A DNA stretch of 64,000 nt from Myxococcota bacterium. GTDB taxonomy: Bacteria > Myxococcota_A > UBA796 > UBA2385. Made by a program: the position numbers and the translations under genes. Within the stretch, counting starts at the first letter, position 1; each line of letters begins with the position of its first letter. Positions 43,481-62,202 of the stretch are shown piece after piece. The stretch covers positions 52,477 through 116,476 of the forward strand of contig JBIJDH010000025.1 of assembly GCA_044344255.1 (NCBI GenBank). The letters run 5' to 3'. Below the pieces are notes generated by a model. It saw nothing but the letters and a program-made list of their open reading frames with translations, did not search any database and was not told the DNA's origin.

Positions 43481-44713
43481 ATGCGCGTCCTCTCCCTGCA
43501 CAGCCGCCTCTCCGACCGCGGCGGCGCCGATCGCTGGCTGCTCGGCCACCTCGCCCGCCTCCAGGCTGAGCACGAGACCCGCCTCGTCGTGGGGCAGCTA
43601 GATCCGCGGCTCGATCCCGCCGAGCGCGCCCGCGTGGGGGCGGTGACGCGGGTGGCGGGCCTCGAGCTCGGGGGCCTCGGCCGCCCGACCCCTGCCCGCG
43701 CCCTCGCCGCGCTCTCGGCGGAGATCGAGCGCTTCGCTCCCGACGTGCTGCACCTCAACGACGTCGTCGATGTCGGTGTCCTCGGCCTCGCCGCGGCGAC
43801 CGGGCGGGCGGTGATGACCGTGCAAGACCACCGCTGCTTCTGCCCCGGCCGCGGCAAGGTGATGCCCGACGGCGCGCCCTGTCGGAGCTCAATGGGCCCG
43901 GCCTGCGCCGCCTGCAACCCGGACCCCGACTACGGGCCCCGGCTCCTCGCGCTCACCGGCGCCCGCCTCGAGGCCCTCTCGCGGATGGCGGCGGTCACGG
44001 TGCTCTCGCGGTACATGGCCGATGAGCTCGTCGCCGCGGGCCTCCCCGGTGAGCGTGTCACCGTCATCCCCCCCTTCGTCGACGCGCTCGGGGCGCCCGC
44101 CCCGTCGGGCCCCGCCGCCTATCACCTGCTGGCCGGGCGCCTCGCGCAGCACAAGGGCGTGGCCGTGGCGCTCGAGGCGGCGCAGCGGCGCGGAGGGAGC
44201 GTGGGCGCCCTGCCGCTCGTGGTCGCCGGGGCGGGCCCGCTGGAGGGGGCCGTCCGAGCGGCCGCCGCCGCCGCGCCCGAGGCCGTCCGCTTCGTCGGCT
44301 GGGCCGATCGGCCGGGGATGGAGGGCCTCCTGTCGGGCGCGCGCTCCCTGTGGCTGCCGAGCCTGTGGGCCGAGCCCTTCGGCATCATCGGCCTCGAGGC
44401 CCTGGCGGCCGGCGTGCCCGTGATCGCGACCCCAGTGGGCGGGGTGACGGAGTGGCTGGTTGAGGACGGGCTGTGTGTGCCCCCGGGAGACGCCCGCGCC
44501 CTCGCCGCCGCGGCAGACGCCCTCGACGCGCAGCCTGACAGGGCCCTGCGCCTGGGCGAGCGGGGCCGGCTGCGGGTCTCCGAGGGCTACGCGCCGGCCG
44601 CCCTCATCGACCGCCTCGTCCGTGTGCTCCAGACTGTCGCCCAGCGAGGATGCACAGCTCACCGTGATCCCCATGCACCCGATGCTCCCAGCGGAGGCCG
44701 CGGGCCTCGATGA
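43481..44713 (+). CDS. Glycosyltransferase family 4
   Basis: GRLAQHKG, PSLWAEPFGIIGLEALAAGVPVI; Cys cluster C..C..C..C in the N-terminal domain. Confidence 0.9.
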   Translation: MRVLSLHSRLSDRGGADRWLLGHLARLQAEHETRLVVGQLDPRLDPAERARVGAVTRVAGLELGGLGRPTPARALAALSAEIERFAPDVLHLNDVVDVGVLGLAAATGRAVMTVQDHRCFCPGRGKVMPDGAPCRSSMGPACAACNPDPDYGPRLLALTGARLEALSRMAAVTVLSRYMADELVAAGLPGERVTVIPPFVDALGAPAPSGPAAYHLLAGRLAQHKGVAVALEAAQRRGGSVGALPLVVAGAGPLEGAVRAAAAAAPEAVRFVGWADRPGMEGLLSGARSLWLPSLWAEPFGIIGLEALAAGVPVIATPVGGVTEWLVEDGLCVPPGDARALAAAADALDAQPDRALRLGERGRLRVSEGYAPAALIDRLVRVLQTVAQRGCTAHRDPHAPDAPSGGRGPR

Positions 44714-45125
44714 AGGGGTAGAGCGCGATGGGCTCGACGTGGTGGAGGACCCGGAGGGGGAGATAGCCCTCATCGAGCTTCTCGAGCACCTGCCGCACCG
44801 GCGCGGGGTGCTCGAGCCCGCGGAGGTCGAGGGTGCCAGGGCCCGCCGAGCCGGGGGTTGCCGGATGAGCGGCGGGCCGCGTCTCCACCGAAGGGGCGGC
44901 GGCGCCCGCGGCGCCGGGGCCGGGGCCGTTGAGGCAGTCGAGCAGCCGCTCCAGGGGCAGTCCGGTGAGGCGCGCGGCCCCGCGGGCGGTGAGGGCCTTC
45001 GCCAGCGCCCTCCCGAGCAGGGGGCCCCGCAGCCGCCGGAAGGCGGGGTGGAGGGCGGTGAGGCGGGGCTGGAGCTCCGGATGGGCCCGGAGCGCGTCGG
45101 ACAGGCGAGAGTCGGCGGTGAACAT
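44604..45125 (-). CDS. DUF1858 + DUF2249 domain protein
   Basis: N-terminal L..HPEL...L...HPAF..L..P (DUF1858-like); LDLRGLEHPAP...EPIALYP (DUF2249-like). Confidence 0.82.
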   Translation of the reverse strand: MFTADSRLSDALRAHPELQPRLTALHPAFRRLRGPLLGRALAKALTARGAARLTGLPLERLLDCLNGPGPGAAGAAAPSVETRPAAHPATPGSAGPGTLDLRGLEHPAPVRQVLEKLDEGYLPLRVLHHVEPIALYPFIEARGLRWEHRVHGDHGELCILAGRQSGAHGRGGR

Positions 45126-45137
45126 GATGCAGGTCAG

Positions 45138-45154
45138 TGCAAGGGGCGTACCAG
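45138..45154 (-). promoter_or_regulatory. Sigma54 (-24/-12) promoter
   Basis: Minus strand CTGGTACGCCCCTTGCA, GG-N10-GC, 13 nt upstream of ATG 45125. Confidence 0.7.
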
Positions 45155-45237
45155 CCACAAAGGCGCGGCCAGGGCGCCGATCGGGCCGCGGCCTGCTCCG
45201 ATTCGCCCAGGGCCTGTGGGATCTGGCCCAGGGTCGG

Positions 45238-47160
45238 TCAGGGCGCCCCCGGCTTCTGGAAGGGGCGCCCCGGACGGCGGTCGGTCTCGTCGAAGCGGGC
45301 CTCGCGCCGCACGTTCGCCTCGGCGCCGCTCTCGATGAAGCCACCGTCGCGGCTGAGCTCGCCCTTCCCGCAATTGACGCTCACGTCGGCGTCGAAGTTG
45401 TGCGGGTCGCAGGCGGTGATGAAGCCGAGGAGCAGGAAGCGGGGCGGCACCGCGCCGAGGTTCATGCCGGACTGGAAGAGGAGCTGCAGCTTGACGAGGT
45501 CCATCAGCATGCGGGCGCTGTCGCGGGTCACGCCGTGGCGGCCGAGCGCGGCGAGGAGGCTGGCCTTGGCCCGCACGGGGTGGTCCTCGAAGAGGGCGGC
45601 GTAGCGGTCGGTGGCGGCCTCGAGGGCCTTCAGGTCCATGAGCTCGGCCATCGGCCGGCCGTGGCCCTGGCCGTCGCGGGCGACGAGGTAATGCTGCACA
45701 TAGAGGCACTTCTTGACCGCGAAGGCCGAGAGGAGCGCGAAGTAGAGGCGGTTGAAACGGCGGATGTCTTCGCGGTGGATGCCGGGCTCCTGCGCGCAGA
45801 GGAGATCGATGATCTCGTCGGGCATCATCGCCATCTCCGAGAGGGGGTTGCCGCCGATAGTGCCGGCGTCCCGCGCGCTCCCGAGCACCCGCAGGCCAAG
45901 GAAGAAGACCTCGCGGATGTGGTCGTTCTCCGGCTGGAGGGCGAAGCGGTAGGTGGTGCCCACCTGGGCCTCGTTGAGCCCGCGGGCCACCACGACGATG
46001 AGGCTGGTGGCGATGCCGAGCTTGCGGAGGTTCTCGAGGGCCTTCATGCGGGCCTTCACGAGCGGCCGCCCGCGGAGGGCCTTGTTGGCGACCTCGTCAA
46101 AGCCGTCGAACTGGAGGAAGACCTCGTCCACCCCCGCGTCCTTGAGCGAGCGGGCGTAGTCGTAGTCGGCGAGCTTGAGCCCGTTCGTGTGGAGCGCGGC
46201 GATGTTCCCGGTGGCCTTGACCTTGCGGATCCAGTCGGCGAGGTCTTCCCGCAGCGTGGGCTCGGCGGCCATGAGATCGACCTTGATGCCGCGCCGCTCG
46301 GAGAGCAGGGCCTGGAGGCCGGAGAGGTCGAGGTCGGGGGTGTCCTCGGTGTTGGCCTTGGCGAGGCAGATGGGGCAGGCGAGGTTGCAGCGCTCCGTCA
46401 TGCGGAGGATGTAGTCCCGCTGCGGATAGGCGCGCTTGTTCACCTTGAAGTAGTAGCGGTCGAGGTCCTCCCAGTAGGCCGGCGCGCGGCTCAGGAGCTG
46501 GACGCTGCTGCCGTGGGTGGGGCAGTGCTTGACGAGGTTGACCTCGGTCTCCGAGCGGATGACCTCGGCGGGCACGGCCTGGAGGCAGGTGTGGCAGTGG
46601 CCCGAGGTGCGGCGCAGCACGGTGCCCACGGGCCCGGGCGTGGCGCTGGCGGCGGGCCCGGAGGTGGGATCGGCGGCGGCCGGCAGGGGGCCCGACGACC
46701 AGCGCTCGAGCAGCTCCATGGCCATCGGGAAGAGGCGCTCCTCCTCCTTCGTCGCGTGCTCTTCGAGCTCATCCAGCAGCGTGAGGATGCGGCCCTCGAG
46801 CGGCCCCGCCTCGCCGGCCGCGACCCGCAGCGCGTCGGCGATGGTGCGCATCTCGTCGAGCTCGTAGCGCATCCCGTGCAGCGGCTCCTCGTAGCCGGTC
46901 TCCGGGGTCTGGCCGGCCGCCATCGCCGCCAGGGCGGGGAAGACCGCCTCCTCCTCCACCGCGAGGTGGGACTCAAGGCTGCGGATGAAGTGGGCCCAGG
47001 GCGCCGTGAACCGAGGGGTGAGGGTGCGGGCCGCCAGCTCCGTGTCGAGGGCCTGGAGCTCTGTGCGCAGGTGCACATGGGCCGACAGGGCGAGCTCACA
47101 AGCGGCGAGGATCGGGTGGGGCGCGGGAGTCGCGACGGGGACGGCGTGATCGGCGGCCAT
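45238..47160 (-). CDS. Hemerythrin domain-radical SAM fusion (Tes/MJ0619-like radical SAM)
   Basis: HHE motifs H..., HLAVEE..VFP, HATKEE..LFP; then CHTC-x20-CPTHG, CNLACPIC, EPTLR, TNG, LQFDG, DxxNFD..C; GGAG RBS. Confidence 0.88.
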   Translation of the reverse strand: MAADHAVPVATPAPHPILAACELALSAHVHLRTELQALDTELAARTLTPRFTAPWAHFIRSLESHLAVEEEAVFPALAAMAAGQTPETGYEEPLHGMRYELDEMRTIADALRVAAGEAGPLEGRILTLLDELEEHATKEEERLFPMAMELLERWSSGPLPAAADPTSGPAASATPGPVGTVLRRTSGHCHTCLQAVPAEVIRSETEVNLVKHCPTHGSSVQLLSRAPAYWEDLDRYYFKVNKRAYPQRDYILRMTERCNLACPICLAKANTEDTPDLDLSGLQALLSERRGIKVDLMAAEPTLREDLADWIRKVKATGNIAALHTNGLKLADYDYARSLKDAGVDEVFLQFDGFDEVANKALRGRPLVKARMKALENLRKLGIATSLIVVVARGLNEAQVGTTYRFALQPENDHIREVFFLGLRVLGSARDAGTIGGNPLSEMAMMPDEIIDLLCAQEPGIHREDIRRFNRLYFALLSAFAVKKCLYVQHYLVARDGQGHGRPMAELMDLKALEAATDRYAALFEDHPVRAKASLLAALGRHGVTRDSARMLMDLVKLQLLFQSGMNLGAVPPRFLLLGFITACDPHNFDADVSVNCGKGELSRDGGFIESGAEANVRREARFDETDRRPGRPFQKPGAP

Positions 47161-47194
47161 GGGGGCTCCGGAGGCGGGAGGGTGCCCGGATCTG

Positions 47195-47211
47195 CGCAAG
47201 GCGCGTGCCAG
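47195..47211 (-). promoter_or_regulatory. Sigma54 (-24/-12) promoter
   Basis: Minus strand CTGGCACGCGCCTTGCG, near-perfect match to YTGGCACG-N4-TTGC. Confidence 0.8.
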
Positions 47212-47438
47212 GACCGATCGCCGCGGTGTCGTCCGTCCGCGGGCTCTCCAGCCTTCGAGCCGTCCCGAGGTGAACGACGGCGCACCCAAAGGAACGGTTC
47301 GGCGCGCGCGGGTGTGAGCGCGGCGCGCCCCGCTCCTGCCCCCACGCGGGCGCTCGGCCGCCGGCGGGAGCTCGCCGAGATAACACTAATAGAACGAGGA
47401 TATTTCAGACTCTTCGGGCGGCCGGCGACCGCCGGAGG

Positions 47439-47455
47439 TTGGCCCGGACCTTGCA
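47439..47455 (+). promoter_or_regulatory. Sigma54 (-24/-12) promoter
   Basis: TTGGCCCGGACCTTGCA, GG-N10-GC; AT-rich tract at 47380-47407 just upstream. Confidence 0.7.
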
Positions 47456-47528
47456 AAACCTCCGCTCGGTCGGGCGCGGCGGTCGGCGCCCCACGCCCGG
47501 CCGATCAGCCACTCAGGAGGGGAGCCCC

Positions 47529-48764
47529 ATGCAAGCTGAGCTCGAAGCGTTGATGGCCCGTGGCCGGGCCGCCGGTGTCACCCAACGATTGATCCGTGAG
47601 GTGGGGCGGGACGGCCGTTGCCTCCGACTGGAACCAGACGGGCACTCGGTGCTCTCTTTCGCGAGCTGCAGCTACCTGTCCTTGGAGCAGGACCCGCGGG
47701 TGGTCACCGGCGCGGTGGAGGCGGTGGTGCGGCACGGTGTGTCGTTCAGCGCGTCCCGCTGTTTTGCCACGAGCCCCCTCTACGCCGAGGTCGACCGCCT
47801 GCTCGAGCGGCTCTTCGGCCGCCCGGTGGTGCTCGCCGGCTCCACCACGCTCGCCCACGGCGCGGCGCTGCCCATCCTCCTCGCCCCCGACGAGCCCGTG
47901 CTCTTTGACCGACAGGTCCACCACAGCGTACAGACCGCGCTCACCGCCCTCGGCCCCCGGCCCGGGAAGAGACAGGCCCTGCCCCACAACGACATGGCGG
48001 CCCTCGAGGTGGCGGTCCGCGCGCACATCGCCAACGGCGCGCGTAAGATCTGGTACTGCGCGGACGGCATCTACAGCATGTTCGGCGACCGGCTGCCCCT
48101 CGCCGCGCTCCGAGCGTTGATGGACCGCTACCCCACGCTGCACGCCTACATCGACGACGCCCACGGCATGAGCTGGACCGGCACCAACGGAGCCGGCAGC
48201 GTGCTGGACGCCGGGCTCCCTCGCGCGCGCACCATCCTCGCCACCTCCCTCTCCAAGGGCTTCGGCTGCGGCGGCGGCGTGATCGCCGTCCCCGACCGCG
48301 AGACGAAGGAGCGCATCGAGAACCTTGGGCCCACGCTGATGTTCAGCATCCAGGTCCCGCCTCCGATCCTCGGCGCCATCGCCGCCACTGCGCGCATCCA
48401 CCTCTCGGCCGAGGTCGGCGCCCTCCAGGCCGAGCTGGCGGAGCGGGTCCGCCTCTGCCGGGCGTTGATCGCCGCCGAGCCGCTCCTCCACAACGCGCTG
48501 CCCATCGAGCTCGTCGAGCCGTCTCCGGTGCAGTACCTCGTGATCGGAGACGCCGACCGTGTCATCGCGGCGGCCGGCCGGCTGCTCGCCCGCGGCTTCT
48601 TCGTCAACCCCGTCGCCTACCCGGCGGTCCCCCGTGGGCAGGACGGGCTGCGCTTCACGCTCAACCGCGCCCACACCGTCGAGGACGTGCACGCGCTGAT
48701 CTCCGCCCTGACCGAGGTGATGGCGGAGGAGCGACGCCGGCCGATGGCCCAGCGCGCGGCCTGA
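47529..48764 (+). CDS. PLP-dependent alpha-oxoamine synthase family protein (BioF/Kbl/SPT-like)
   Basis: FASCSYL, HxS, DGIYSMFGD, DDAHG, SLSKGFG (PLP lysine), YPAVP..LRF; AGGAGG RBS. Confidence 0.9.
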   Translation: MQAELEALMARGRAAGVTQRLIREVGRDGRCLRLEPDGHSVLSFASCSYLSLEQDPRVVTGAVEAVVRHGVSFSASRCFATSPLYAEVDRLLERLFGRPVVLAGSTTLAHGAALPILLAPDEPVLFDRQVHHSVQTALTALGPRPGKRQALPHNDMAALEVAVRAHIANGARKIWYCADGIYSMFGDRLPLAALRALMDRYPTLHAYIDDAHGMSWTGTNGAGSVLDAGLPRARTILATSLSKGFGCGGGVIAVPDRETKERIENLGPTLMFSIQVPPPILGAIAATARIHLSAEVGALQAELAERVRLCRALIAAEPLLHNALPIELVEPSPVQYLVIGDADRVIAAAGRLLARGFFVNPVAYPAVPRGQDGLRFTLNRAHTVEDVHALISALTEVMAEERRRPMAQRAA

Positions 48765-48911: not shown

Positions 48912-49370
48912 CGCCGCCGGGGTCGTGGCTCGGCTTGACGATGTATCAGGCCCGCCCCTACACTGACCACGATTGTTTGAAGACGGAGGCTCAGCGAGCT
49001 CGGCTTGAACGCGCTCGGTGAGACCGCCCGCGCCGCCCTGGAGGCCGCCTTGCTTCAAAACTATGAGTACAAGAGCGACTTCGCCAAGAAGTACATCGCC
49101 ATGGGCAAGGCCGAGGGCAAGGCCGAGGGCAAGGCCGAGGGCAAGGCCGAGGGCAAGGCCGAGGGCAAGGCCGAGGGCAAGGCCGAGGGCAAGGCCGAGG
49201 GGCTCGCCCATGCCTTGATCAAGGTCCTCCGATCGCGTGGCCTTCATCCAGACGCCGCCGCGGTCGTCCGCATCGAGACCACCGAGGAGACCGCCGTCCT
49301 CCTCGCTTGGCTTGACCGCGCCCTGACCGCCAGCTCCGTGGAGGAGGCCCTGGCCGACGGATCCGCTTGA
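48912..49370 (+). pseudogene. 3'-terminal duplicate of the Rpn-like gene; may encode a stand-alone C-terminal protein (TTG 49050-49370)
   Basis: 49004-49358 is nearly identical to 50296-50650; 48912-48968 is a degenerate homolog followed by a ~35-bp unrelated insert. Confidence 0.8.
49104..49199 (+). repeat. 12-bp tandem repeat x8 (GKAE)
   Basis: (ggcaaggccgag)8. Confidence 0.95.
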
Positions 49371-49723: not shown

Positions 49724-50653
49724 ATGCCCTCCTCCCTCCACGAGACGCTTATCGACCTCTTCCGGGCCGATCTACGGCTGGTCGCGGACCTCGCCGCGCC
49801 CTTCCTCGCCCCCGTCGCGGGCGGCATCGGGGGCCTCAAGCCCCTCGACTCCGCGCTCACCGACCCCAGGCCCATCGAGCGCAGGGCCGACCTCGGCGTG
49901 GTCCCCGATCGCGGCCCCGTCTTCATTCTCGAGGTGCAGCTCCGCATCGACCCCGACAAGCTCTGGACCTGGCCGAGCTACACCGTGATCACCCGCGATC
50001 GCCTGCGCCGCGAGGTCGTCCTCGTCGTGCTCACGCTCAGCCCCAGGGTCGCCGCTTGGGCCAATAAGCCCATCTCCCTCGGCCCCACCGGCTCCGTCCT
50101 GGTTCCGCTCGTGATCGGGCCGGCCAACATCCCGCTGCTCACGGACCCCGGTGAGGCCCTCGCTCATCCGGAGCGCCTCGTGTTGAGCGCGCTGGTCCAT
50201 GGCAAGGGGCCCTCCGGCGCTGCGATCGCCGCCGCCGCCGCCGGGGTCGTCGCTCAGCTTGACGATGATCGGGCCCGCCCCTACACTGACCTCATCTTGA
50301 ACGCGCTCGGTGAGTCCGCTCGCGCCGCCCTGGAGGCCGCCTTGCTTCAAAACTATGAGTACAAGAGCGACTTCGCCAAGAAGTACATCGCCATGGGCAA
50401 GGCCGAGGGCAAGGCCGAGGGCAAGGCCGAGGGCAAGGCCGAGGGCAAGGCCGAGGGCAAGGCCGAGGGCAAGGCCGAGGGCAAGGCCGAGGGGCTCGCC
50501 CATGCCTTGATCAAGGTCCTCCGATCGCGTGGCCTTCATCCAGACGCCGCCGCGGTCGTCCGCATCGAGACCACCGAGGAGACCGCCGTCCTCCTCGCTT
50601 GGCTTGACCGCGCCCTGACCGCCAGCTCCGTGGAGGAAGTCCTGGCCGATTGA
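49724..50653 (+). CDS. Rpn-like PD-(D/E)XK nuclease family protein
   Basis: HETLIDLF, RRADL, LEVQL..D..K..TWPSY, YEYKSDFA, (GKAE)8, C-terminal LxxWLDRALTA. Confidence 0.85.
   Translation: MPSSLHETLIDLFRADLRLVADLAAPFLAPVAGGIGGLKPLDSALTDPRPIERRADLGVVPDRGPVFILEVQLRIDPDKLWTWPSYTVITRDRLRREVVLVVLTLSPRVAAWANKPISLGPTGSVLVPLVIGPANIPLLTDPGEALAHPERLVLSALVHGKGPSGAAIAAAAAGVVAQLDDDRARPYTDLILNALGESARAALEAALLQNYEYKSDFAKKYIAMGKAEGKAEGKAEGKAEGKAEGKAEGKAEGKAEGLAHALIKVLRSRGLHPDAAAVVRIETTEETAVLLAWLDRALTASSVEEVLAD
50396..50491 (+). repeat. 12-bp tandem repeat x8 (GKAE)
   Basis: (ggcaaggccgag)8. Confidence 0.95.
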
Positions 50654-61481: not shown

Positions 61482-61498
61482 TTGGCGCGGCGCTTGCA
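61482..61498 (+). promoter_or_regulatory. Sigma54 (-24/-12) promoter
   Basis: TTGGCGCGGCGCTTGCA, GG-N10-GC, followed by a GGAGGAGG RBS and ATG 61522. Confidence 0.65.
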
Positions 61499-61521: not shown

Positions 61522-62202
61522 ATGCGCCTGCTCGCCCTGCTCGCCCTCGTCGCTTGTGACCACCAGTACATCGCCATCCGCGACGCGGAGGTGATCGATG
61601 GCACGCCGCAGTACGCCTATGACCAGCTCTGGGTGGGGGATATCACCCCGACCTACGCGGTCACCGCGGGCGGCCTCGACCTCTCGGCCGAAGGGAGCGT
61701 CACGGTCGAGGTGAGCTTCGCCGGGACCTATGAGTTCACGGTGACCGAGCTCGTGTTCCTCACCTTCGACAATGGGTACTCTGACGTCGGCGATCATTGG
61801 GTCTACATCCTCGACGACGACGAGAAGGCGTTGCAGAAGGCGGAGATCACGCTGGAGCTGCTGACGGAGCGGCCGACGAAGGAGTGGTGCACCCCCAAGC
61901 GCGCCGGCACCTGGACCTGCTTCGCCAAGGTGGACGACGGCCTCGACGGGCTCGGCCTCGCCGCGGCCGGCGGGGACAGCGTGGGGCTGTACTTCGACTT
62001 CCCGGTCACCGTCGACGCTATGGACGGTGATGGGGGCGATGGCGGTGTCTGTGACGGGTACACCGTCGACGACTGCTGCGGCGGTTCGGCGGGCGTGAGC
62101 GTGGTGGAGTGCGCGTGGGATCCGGCCTGCGACTGTCCGGAGGGCACCACGGACGTCGGCTACTATGGCGACGGAAACCGGCGCTGTGACTGTCCGGGTT
62201 GA
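61522..62202 (+). CDS. Hypothetical lipoprotein with Cys-rich C-terminus
   Basis: Lipobox LVAC; C..CC..C..CxC..CxC tail. Confidence 0.82.
   Translation: MRLLALLALVACDHQYIAIRDAEVIDGTPQYAYDQLWVGDITPTYAVTAGGLDLSAEGSVTVEVSFAGTYEFTVTELVFLTFDNGYSDVGDHWVYILDDDEKALQKAEITLELLTERPTKEWCTPKRAGTWTCFAKVDDGLDGLGLAAAGGDSVGLYFDFPVTVDAMDGDGGDGGVCDGYTVDDCCGGSAGVSVVECAWDPACDCPEGTTDVGYYGDGNRRCDCPG

Follow-up and report, generated by a model that had tools for sequence, protein, structure and literature searches.

The window analyzed here, a stretch of 64,000 nucleotides from a Myxococcota bacterium (assembly GCA_044344255.1, contig JBIJDH010000025.1), carries a gene that joins a YtfE-like hemerythrin domain to a radical S-adenosylmethionine (SAM) enzyme with the predicted fold of GDGT-MAS/Tes. 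We favor the reading that this fusion enzyme belongs to a low-oxygen and denitrification regulon together with the adjacent DrpB-like DUF1858-DUF2249 gene, that it performs radical chemistry on a lipid-like chain while its hemerythrin shields or repairs the clusters, and that the alpha-oxoamine synthase (AOS) gene on its other side is unrelated. We hold this reading as a whole tentatively, at somewhat less than an even chance, and consider the low-oxygen regulon taken alone to be highly probable. A preliminary description of these genes had proposed a low-oxygen or nitric oxide response in which AOS makes an amino-lipid that radical chemistry then modifies; the low-oxygen/N-oxide setting of that proposal is supported below and its lipid substrate is plausible, but the role given to AOS did not hold. 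Known relatives exist for each part (Tes, YtfE, DrpB, Nmp, and Alb29), and we found no published account of the fusion, its promoter coupling, or its palindrome in a literature search that did not reach most subscription papers and supplements. Members of the family may be listed in supplementary material outside this search, namely in the homologue tables that accompany PMC8941075 and in the similarity network from PMC9433317.

Fold and family of the hemerythrin-radical SAM fusion

The fusion gene reads as had been described, with a hemerythrin domain, an HMPTM zinc ribbon, and a radical SAM domain in a single frame that is unbroken throughout 47160-45238 on the reverse strand (GC content at third codon positions 0.86-1.0). 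A search with its protein returned 235 matches from sources named as Myxococcota, Deltaproteobacteria, Oligoflexia, or Pseudomonadota, and 75 of the 120 matches listed are fused (52-71% identity). Of the 127 genomes searched from the order, 50 have the radical SAM gene, as do 30 of 401 sampled across the phylum, and the metal ligands of its product are invariant or nearly so among the 120 proteins.

In the predicted model, the radical SAM part aligns with GDGT-MAS/Tes (PDB 7TOL/7TOM; PMC9433317, PMC8941075) over 429 residues, with a Z score of 32.7 and a root-mean-square deviation (rmsd) of 3.7 to 7tol, compared to a Z score of 18.7 for the next-best family; Foldseek gives a TM score of 0.71 by target. 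The model has the four-part overall fold of Tes/GDGT-MAS and keeps both the rubredoxin-like CX2C..CX2H site (C189/C192/C213/H216) and the radical SAM motif CX3CX2C (C258/C262/C265). It also shares three C-terminal cysteines (C485, C584, and C597) that are invariant among the 120 proteins, 7 of which have a further cysteine at position 611. The structural alignment covers the helical region 504-564, and the second lipid pocket of GDGT-MAS is reported to be built from amphipathic helices (PMC9433317). A lipid-type substrate for the radical SAM enzyme is plausible.

The fusion enzyme differs from GDGT-MAS in its added N-terminal hemerythrin and in the loop with the ligands of the N-terminal auxiliary [4Fe-4S] cluster (C73, C77, C80, and a histidine), which is deleted in the profile alignment; between H216 and C258, there is no cysteine in 112 of 120 homologues and a single one in the other 8. 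Because this cluster is missing, because the C-terminal cluster site is changed in sequence as set out further below, and because the scores stay far under the cut-offs of the Tes and TrsS models (NF045702, 122 vs. 450; NF045646, 157 vs. 490), the fusion enzyme has a Tes-like chassis but is not a Tes member.

Elsewhere in the genome, three more Tes-like genes (G000:C2:132665-134146, C52:97730-99196, and C52:103113-104774) keep the cysteine loop of the N-terminal cluster and lie in gene clusters that contain several short-chain reductase genes, named here from N-terminal sequence; one of the three has a doubled zinc ribbon. There are also three frames of 1,400-1,650 amino acids with a fatty-acyl-reductase-type domain (G000:C24:58076, C24:61623, and C52:171307), which by their size could be ElbD-like ether-lipid enzymes.

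The hemerythrin domain of the predicted model (residues 14-151) aligns with YtfE (5fnn) over 131 residues at a Z score of 15.2 and an rmsd of 2.8. Besides this four-helix fold it shares with YtfE/RIC the N-oxide gene context and the di-iron motif H-HxxxE-H-HxxxE, described as such in PMC12753109, whose six ligands are complete in 61 of the 75 fused homologues. It differs in being joined to an enzyme, in one histidine lost in this copy, in having no Pfam match to ScdA_N in the fusion protein, and in a TIGR03652 (YtfE/RIC) score of 31 against a cut-off of 205.

Promoters, palindrome, and N-oxide gene context

The preliminary description had placed a GG-N10-GC promoter before each of three adjacent genes, and all three 17-mers are present at the positions and on the strands given there, with GG at -24, GC at -12, the fixed 10-nt spacing, and consensus flanks (see table). 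A weight matrix trained on 124 intergenic sites with these three left out, and scored over the 234,322 GG-N10-GC cores of the 8.18-Mb genome, places them among about 120 sites that look like true promoters. Outside called genes, which cover around 85% of the genome, lie 109 of the 117 sites scoring at least 16. The pattern TGGCACG-N4-TTGC has 38 genomic copies, compared to 1 and 0 when its spacing is shortened or lengthened by one, respectively; a shuffle test gave 3 matches against 0.01 expected but is not independent, since the pattern was fitted to the same three sites. The genome has one rpoN match and 35 sigma54 activator domains at E below 1e-25. None of these 35 maps to the locus contig, and we therefore rejected an activator encoded nearby. 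Three boxes within 3 kb occur at two places in the genome, this locus and the nap/DUF1858/nos cluster. Sigma54 promoters are common in this genome, which has 123 promoter-like sites, 5 pairs of them back to back, so that co-regulation cannot be read from the boxes by themselves.

Across the family, among genes at the head of a unit, 17 of 23 fused members have a sigma54 box upstream, whereas the unfused members have it in 0 of 18 cases (control counts are 114 of 3,684 unit-heading genes of this genome and, in a second set, 31 of 317), so that promoter conservation was borne out for the fusion gene; it failed for AOS, which has no conserved box. The distance from the start of the box to the ATG is 28-30 nt in 13 of the 20 cases (L046, L047, L049, L051, L053, L055-L057, L060, L064, L066, L086, and L092), and leaderless messages are therefore predicted, as for the DUF1858-DUF2249 gene here, whose position relative to its box (45125-45154) would give a leaderless or nearly leaderless message. 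Leaderless sigma54 transcripts are thus a predicted conserved trait of the hemerythrin-radical SAM gene family. A purine-rich stretch resembling a ribosome-binding site precedes the ATG of the fusion gene.

Enumeration upstream of the homologues' boxes yielded a palindrome, TGTGY-N6-RCACA, in tandem copies spaced 20-23 nt in the homologue promoters. At one mismatch it lies near 7 of 19 fused promoters; where the fused gene has no box the count is 1 of 13, for unfused genes it is 0 of 26, and random windows contain it at a rate of 0.9%. A matrix trained solely on 21 sites of other genomes was then run over this one: 14 of its top 45 matches lie within 400 nt of a sigma54 promoter, and the top targets include a type II DMSO-reductase-family operon, nap/nos, cco, nirK, and a Crp/NtrC pair beside a protoglobin kinase. 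We assume the names of cco and some other targets from N-terminal sequence. In relatives, the palindrome occurs at 11 of 36 other sigma54 promoters in the radical SAM loci, including those of an NtrC-type regulator, Crp, Usp, and a hemN-like gene. Within the window, the promoter of the DUF1858-DUF2249 gene has a strong copy accompanied by a weak one, and an exact copy lies inside the fusion gene. Exact copies number 6 genome-wide, of which 3 lie within 250 nt of a sigma54 promoter; the one in the fusion gene needs two rare codons (0.107 and 0.026), giving a recoding probability of 0.0007.

This arrangement recalls the NmpRSTU oxygen regulon of Myxococcus xanthus, for which PMC11841059 and PMC12753109 describe sigma54 promoters with tandem palindromes and whose published targets include hemerythrin and hemN (PMC11841059). 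As in that system, a protoglobin kinase and an NtrC-type regulator stand side by side in this genome, and cco, hemN-like, Usp, and regulator promoters bear the palindrome. The site differs (TGTGY-N6-RCACA vs. GCGCA-N5-TGCGC), and the regulon here extends to denitrification. At two mismatches, the NmpR consensus GCGCA-N5-TGCGC is absent from 47212-47438 upstream of the fusion gene, on which ground we rejected it as the activator site; in 45155-45400 it has two matches at two mismatches, 141 nt apart. Since the NmpR consensus is absent and the palindrome is, as we take it, also like a CRP box, either an NtrC-type or a Crp-family protein is a candidate for the palindrome's binder.

For the genomic context we counted 58 radical SAM loci after dropping one duplicate (L088), 24 of them with less than 10 kb of flank; neighbor genes were called by a codon-score gene finder, with which starts may be off and small genes missed, and selected sets of 94 and 87 neighbors were run against Pfam. 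In 18 of the 58 loci, nos, nor, nar, nirK, nnrS, or RIC genes stand no more than 8 kb from the radical SAM gene; two of the 18 rest on a norE-like COX3 match alone. Among the 34 loci with long flanks the count is 13. By the same test, 139 of 6,218 genes of this genome (2%) have such neighbors. These loci have several different arrangements and are spread over several clades of a quick tree whose backbone is open and which left out L088 (duplicate) as well as L089 and L095 (truncated). A protoglobin kinase is nearby in 4 further loci. A norB or nosZ match is found in 29 of 50 carrier genomes (19 of 26 with the fused form) vs. 21 of 77 non-carriers. Together with the conservation of the box and the palindrome matches, the 18 loci support the low-oxygen/N-oxide setting for the fusion and the DUF1858-DUF2249 gene.

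A small radical SAM partner gene is near the radical SAM gene in 6 of the 58 loci. In this genome a second hemerythrin fusion (L180:1453-2718, G000:C51:51452-52717) stands behind a sigma54 box; its partner domain has no Pfam match and resembles the metallo-beta-lactamase (MBL) fold, which we treat as a lead only, and in 6 of the 58 loci the same MBL-like domain is encoded on its own in the vicinity of the radical SAM gene. The denitrification genes of this genome lie in a nap/nos cluster (L182, G000:C29:158000-177900), with nirK, napA with NrfC/NrfD-type partners, a full DUF1858-2xDUF2249 gene, SufT, a Sec-type nosZ, Rrf2, and Crp, and on a separate contig with norCBQD and nnrS (G000:C27:50368-56900); sigma54 boxes precede nirK, nap, DUF1858, and nosZ. 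Nine unfused loci (L067-L069, L075, L077, L078, L080, L091, and L098) form a clade in which the radical SAM gene immediately follows envC, an M23 peptidase gene, and has no sigma54 box; ftsX is also present in eight of these loci, and an envelope housekeeping role is possible for this clade.

The DUF1858-DUF2249 gene is also as described, though both of its domains fall under the Pfam cut-off. It shares with DrpB of Thermus thermophilus an N-terminal DUF1858 followed by DUF2249, but has one DUF2249 where DrpB, which PMC6282519 ties to nitrate respiration genes, has two. Alignment with L037 and the paralogue in the nap/nos cluster (C29), which has the full three-domain form, shows the middle DUF2249 to be missing. 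Induction of DUF2249 genes during haloarchaeal denitrification is reported in PMC11218638. A search with the DUF1858-DUF2249 protein at E 1e-12 returned itself alone; the gene neighbors the radical SAM gene in 4 of the 58 loci (three of the four are close kin), and all 7 relatives that carry it also carry the radical SAM gene. Its end overlaps the 3' end of a convergent GT4 glycosyltransferase frame by 110 nt (44604-44713).

Features of the locus (positions in the window; a dot marks features without strand)
Feature	Position	Strand	Details
DUF1858-DUF2249 gene, DrpB-like	44604..45125	-	173 amino acids; Pfam E 1e-5 and 7e-5
Sigma54 -24/-12 box of DUF1858-DUF2249 gene	45138..45154	-	score 17.9, rank 82; 29 nt before ATG
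Weak second palindrome copy	45194..45209	.	score 6.4; 21 nt from the strong copy
Predicted regulator site, TGTGY-N6-RCACA type	45215..45230	.	score 14.2, rank 24; about 69 nt upstream of the DUF1858-DUF2249 box
Hemerythrin-radical SAM fusion gene	45238..47160	-	640 amino acids; model pLDDT 87
GDGT-MAS/Tes-fold part, residues 179-626	45283..46626	-	Z 32.7 to 7tol
YtfE-like hemerythrin domain, residues 14-151	46708..47121	-	H28, H65, E69, H135, E139; third His is L101
Exact TGTGY-N6-RCACA, predicted downstream regulator site	47062..47077	.	inside fusion gene, 134 nt past the gene's sigma54 box
Sigma54 box of fusion gene	47195..47211	-	score 16.8, rank 103
AT-rich tract upstream of AOS promoter	47378..47407	.	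30-mer, 30% GC
Sigma54 box of AOS gene	47439..47455	+	score 16.3, rank 111
Alpha-oxoamine synthase, PRK07505-like subfamily	47529..48764	+	411 amino acids; no linkage elsewhere

The AT-rich tract noted beside the back-to-back promoters is real and among the four most AT-rich 30-mers near such promoters. It has no IHF consensus at one mismatch and no other genomic copy at 6 mismatches; as an IHF, FNR, CRP, or NmpR site it was rejected, with no match at the mismatches tested. A sigma70 scan gave one promoter-like and one terminator-like match, neither informative, and contigs of one study (three runs) contain an exact 153-nt match to 45238-45390 that says nothing on transcript starts or levels. 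A fourth strong sigma54 box in the window (61482-61498, forward strand, score 18.2) stands before the gene at 61522, and a palindrome match (15.5) lies at about 61022, around 460 nt upstream of that box.

Competing explanations and the alpha-oxoamine synthase

Several observations weigh against the favored reading. On the side of the substrate, identity to GDGT-MAS is 21%; Met439 of GDGT-MAS aligns with I581 in the profile alignment, so that its site of three cysteines plus Met439 is altered in sequence, and Tyr459 aligns with E601 by a four-residue ungapped extension of the alignment. Both Met439 and Tyr459 are reported to be dispensable for GDGT-MAS catalysis (PMC9433317). K484, Q489, K599, and E601 are invariant and suggest a more polar site, and no recurring lipid-gene neighbor within the order was found among the neighbors examined. 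On the side of the regulon, the available flanks of 40 of 58 loci hold no N-oxide gene, 21 of 50 carriers have no norB or nosZ match, and the counts in favor of the association overstate it because kin are not independent. The count of palindromes near fused promoters is circular, as the motif was derived from these. The fusion gene itself has a lone palindrome copy, situated within its coding sequence, while the stretch 47212-47438 has no copy scoring at least 6, and most unbound predicted NmpR sites of M. xanthus are described as intragenic (PMC11841059). Finally, the hemerythrin of this copy has five of the six ligands, with L101 replacing the third histidine, and may be weakened by the missing ligand.

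Since polar residues are invariant and lipid-gene neighbors are missing, a soluble substrate stays in play. The enzyme might act on a polar small molecule or cofactor precursor, e.g., in an oxygen-independent replacement step for anaerobic respiration like that of HemN. The polar residues in question stand beside the C-terminal cysteines, the partner small radical SAM and MBL-fold proteins recur, and in one relative (L097) the palindrome is found at the promoter of a gene that we take to be hemN-like from its N-terminal sequence. We nevertheless regard a polar substrate as rather unlikely: The full GDGT-MAS fold including the helical subdomain is kept, and the clusters of the sister clade look like lipid or polyketide tailoring clusters. 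The six sister-clade genes examined (43-46% identity to the fusion enzyme) sit among B12-binding and small radical SAM genes, mostly with a flavin oxidoreductase, and one of these clusters also encodes an enoyl-CoA hydratase together with a type III polyketide synthase. Their small radical SAM protein shares 46% identity with the partner that accompanies the fusion in N-oxide loci. More distant look-alikes (163 representatives at E 1e-30) are uncharacterized and fall in clusters rich in Omnitrophota or Spirochaetota. A conserved radical-SAM-dense cluster of other myxobacterial families (L184-L189) holds up to three B12-binding radical SAM genes, small radical SAM genes, the Tes-fold gene, a flavin oxidoreductase, and a 2,300-amino-acid radical SAM-SPASM-TPR protein.

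Alternatively, the enzyme could mature or repair Nor, Nos, Nap, or the clusters of these denitrification metalloenzymes, or it could modify a partner protein, with hemerythrin as an iron donor as in YtfE, its closest relative. Genes for RIC, SufT/DUF59, Rrf2, nnrS, nor, and nos do adjoin, but no single reductase is a constant neighbor. Moreover, all 9 genomes of one family (f3) carry the unfused gene, yet norB and nosZ are each found in 0 of the 9, while another (f4) has norB in 11 and nosZ in 8 of 40 genomes and the radical SAM gene in none of the 40. Both patterns count against an obligatory role in denitrification, and we consider this explanation quite improbable.

It is also conceivable that the three promoters, though real, respond to different activators, with the fusion gene here no longer under low-oxygen control. 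The genome has around 35 sigma54 activators with none on the locus contig, neither the fusion gene nor AOS has an upstream palindrome, the hemerythrin is degenerate, and both a box and an N-oxide neighbor are absent from L041 and L044, the two nearest homologues whose context is known. Against this stand the strong palindrome at the DUF1858-DUF2249 promoter and the exact, codon-costly copy in the fusion gene, which leave the idea of separate activators very doubtful.

The AOS gene was described correctly as such. H131, D210, H212, K243, and R375 are invariant or nearly so among 21 AOS sequences, and we take the first four to be residues of the pyridoxal phosphate (PLP) site and R375 to be carboxylate-binding. 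Its best solved match is 8xha (E 6e-42), the structure of Alb29 (PMC11906848). With Alb29, BioF, KBL, SPT, and ALAS it shares the PLP-enzyme fold and the conserved His/Asp/His/Lys/Arg set, but it scores under all curated NCBIfam cut-offs (PRK07505, 256/342; BioF, 166/426; SPT, 121/640; ALAS, 113/339) and forms a subfamily of its own, with around 45 proteins at 54-66% identity and no fixed neighborhood. Two tandem gene copies with GKAE repeats (49005-49370 and 49724-50653), the first truncated and neither with a Pfam match, border AOS; we take the repeat gene to resemble Rpn-type recombination-promoting nucleases.

We rejected AOS as a pathway partner on linkage. In the 58 radical SAM loci, AOS occurs 0 times at a distance of up to 8 kb from the radical SAM gene, and radical SAM, hemerythrin, DUF, or N-oxide genes are found in 0 of 80 AOS loci, the best of 444, of which 9 are close homologues sharing no common neighborhood and many are on short contigs. 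Linkage elsewhere is thus lacking for AOS and lacking in part for the DUF1858-DUF2249 gene. Among 40 relatives, AOS has no match above 40% identity, and 7 have weak matches (35-40%, in much longer frames); 6 of these 7 carry the radical SAM gene, always on another contig. The matches of 62-66% carry names from other myxobacterial groups. Upstream of the close homologues L100-L106 there is no sigma54 site of at least 13 and one of 12.4, and the AOS promoter region here has no copy of the regulon palindrome. A single pathway in which AOS makes an amino-lipid that the radical SAM enzyme modifies is therefore highly improbable, despite the lipid-enzyme fold, the three boxes in 2.3 kb at a density matched solely by the nap/nos cluster, and the exact palindrome around 370 nt upstream of the AOS box that could act on it; AOS is likely an unrelated neighbor.

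Proposed mechanism and meaning for the family

We infer that the fusion enzyme, most likely oxygen-sensitive, stems from radical-SAM-rich biosynthetic clusters, where it would have tailored a lipid or polyketide chain, and that it acquired its hemerythrin and its sigma54 box together on entering the low-oxygen regulon. According to our favored reading of a fusion enzyme in a low-oxygen regulon, falling oxygen would very probably activate the promoters via the regulator binding TGTGY-N6-RCACA. Candidates for this regulator are the Nmp-like NtrC-type protein (C52:479977) that neighbors the protoglobin kinase and the adjacent Crp-family protein (C52:479048); a second Crp-family protein is encoded at C29:158021. 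SAM cleavage at the CX3CX2C cluster would then make a substrate radical. By analogy to GDGT-MAS, whose first radical is described as held on the C-terminal cluster (PMC9433317; PMC13459092; PMC11186832), C485/C584/C597 would carry a cluster with an open iron that may hold or oxidize this radical, and we slightly lean toward a cross-link, ring, or desaturation in an acyl-type chain as the result. Hemerythrin would probably take up O2 or nitric oxide (NO), or donate iron, so that the enzyme could work where traces of O2 coexist with NO.

Bacterial Tes homologues have been proposed, with unproven function, as makers of membrane-spanning lipids (PMC8941075, PMC11868695), and one acidobacterium is reported to make such lipids under oxygen limitation (PMC8941075). 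That the fusion is a bacterial membrane-spanning or ring-forming lipid synthase with its own O2/NO shield, switched on together with denitrification, appears unlikely on present evidence. If true, an aquatic myxobacterial order would cross-link acyl or ether lipid tails at low oxygen and tighten its membrane while making NO, and a redox-controlled source of branched tetraether-type lipids would have gone unrecognized, missed by Tes similarity cut-offs.

The family is a divergent Tes-fold subfamily with a genomic signature of oxygen control, composed of a YtfE-like domain fused to the enzyme, a conserved sigma54 box whose presence or absence follows that of the hemerythrin fusion, and a palindrome that anaerobic respiration genes also have. 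It offers a single-gene test case for the role of Tes-fold enzymes without the N-terminal cluster and a naturally occurring example of an iron-sulfur enzyme possibly equipped with a domain for its own protection or repair, alongside a predicted low-oxygen regulon for an order known here from assembled genomes alone. If the product is a cross-linked lipid, the family would bear on who makes branched tetraethers, and when.

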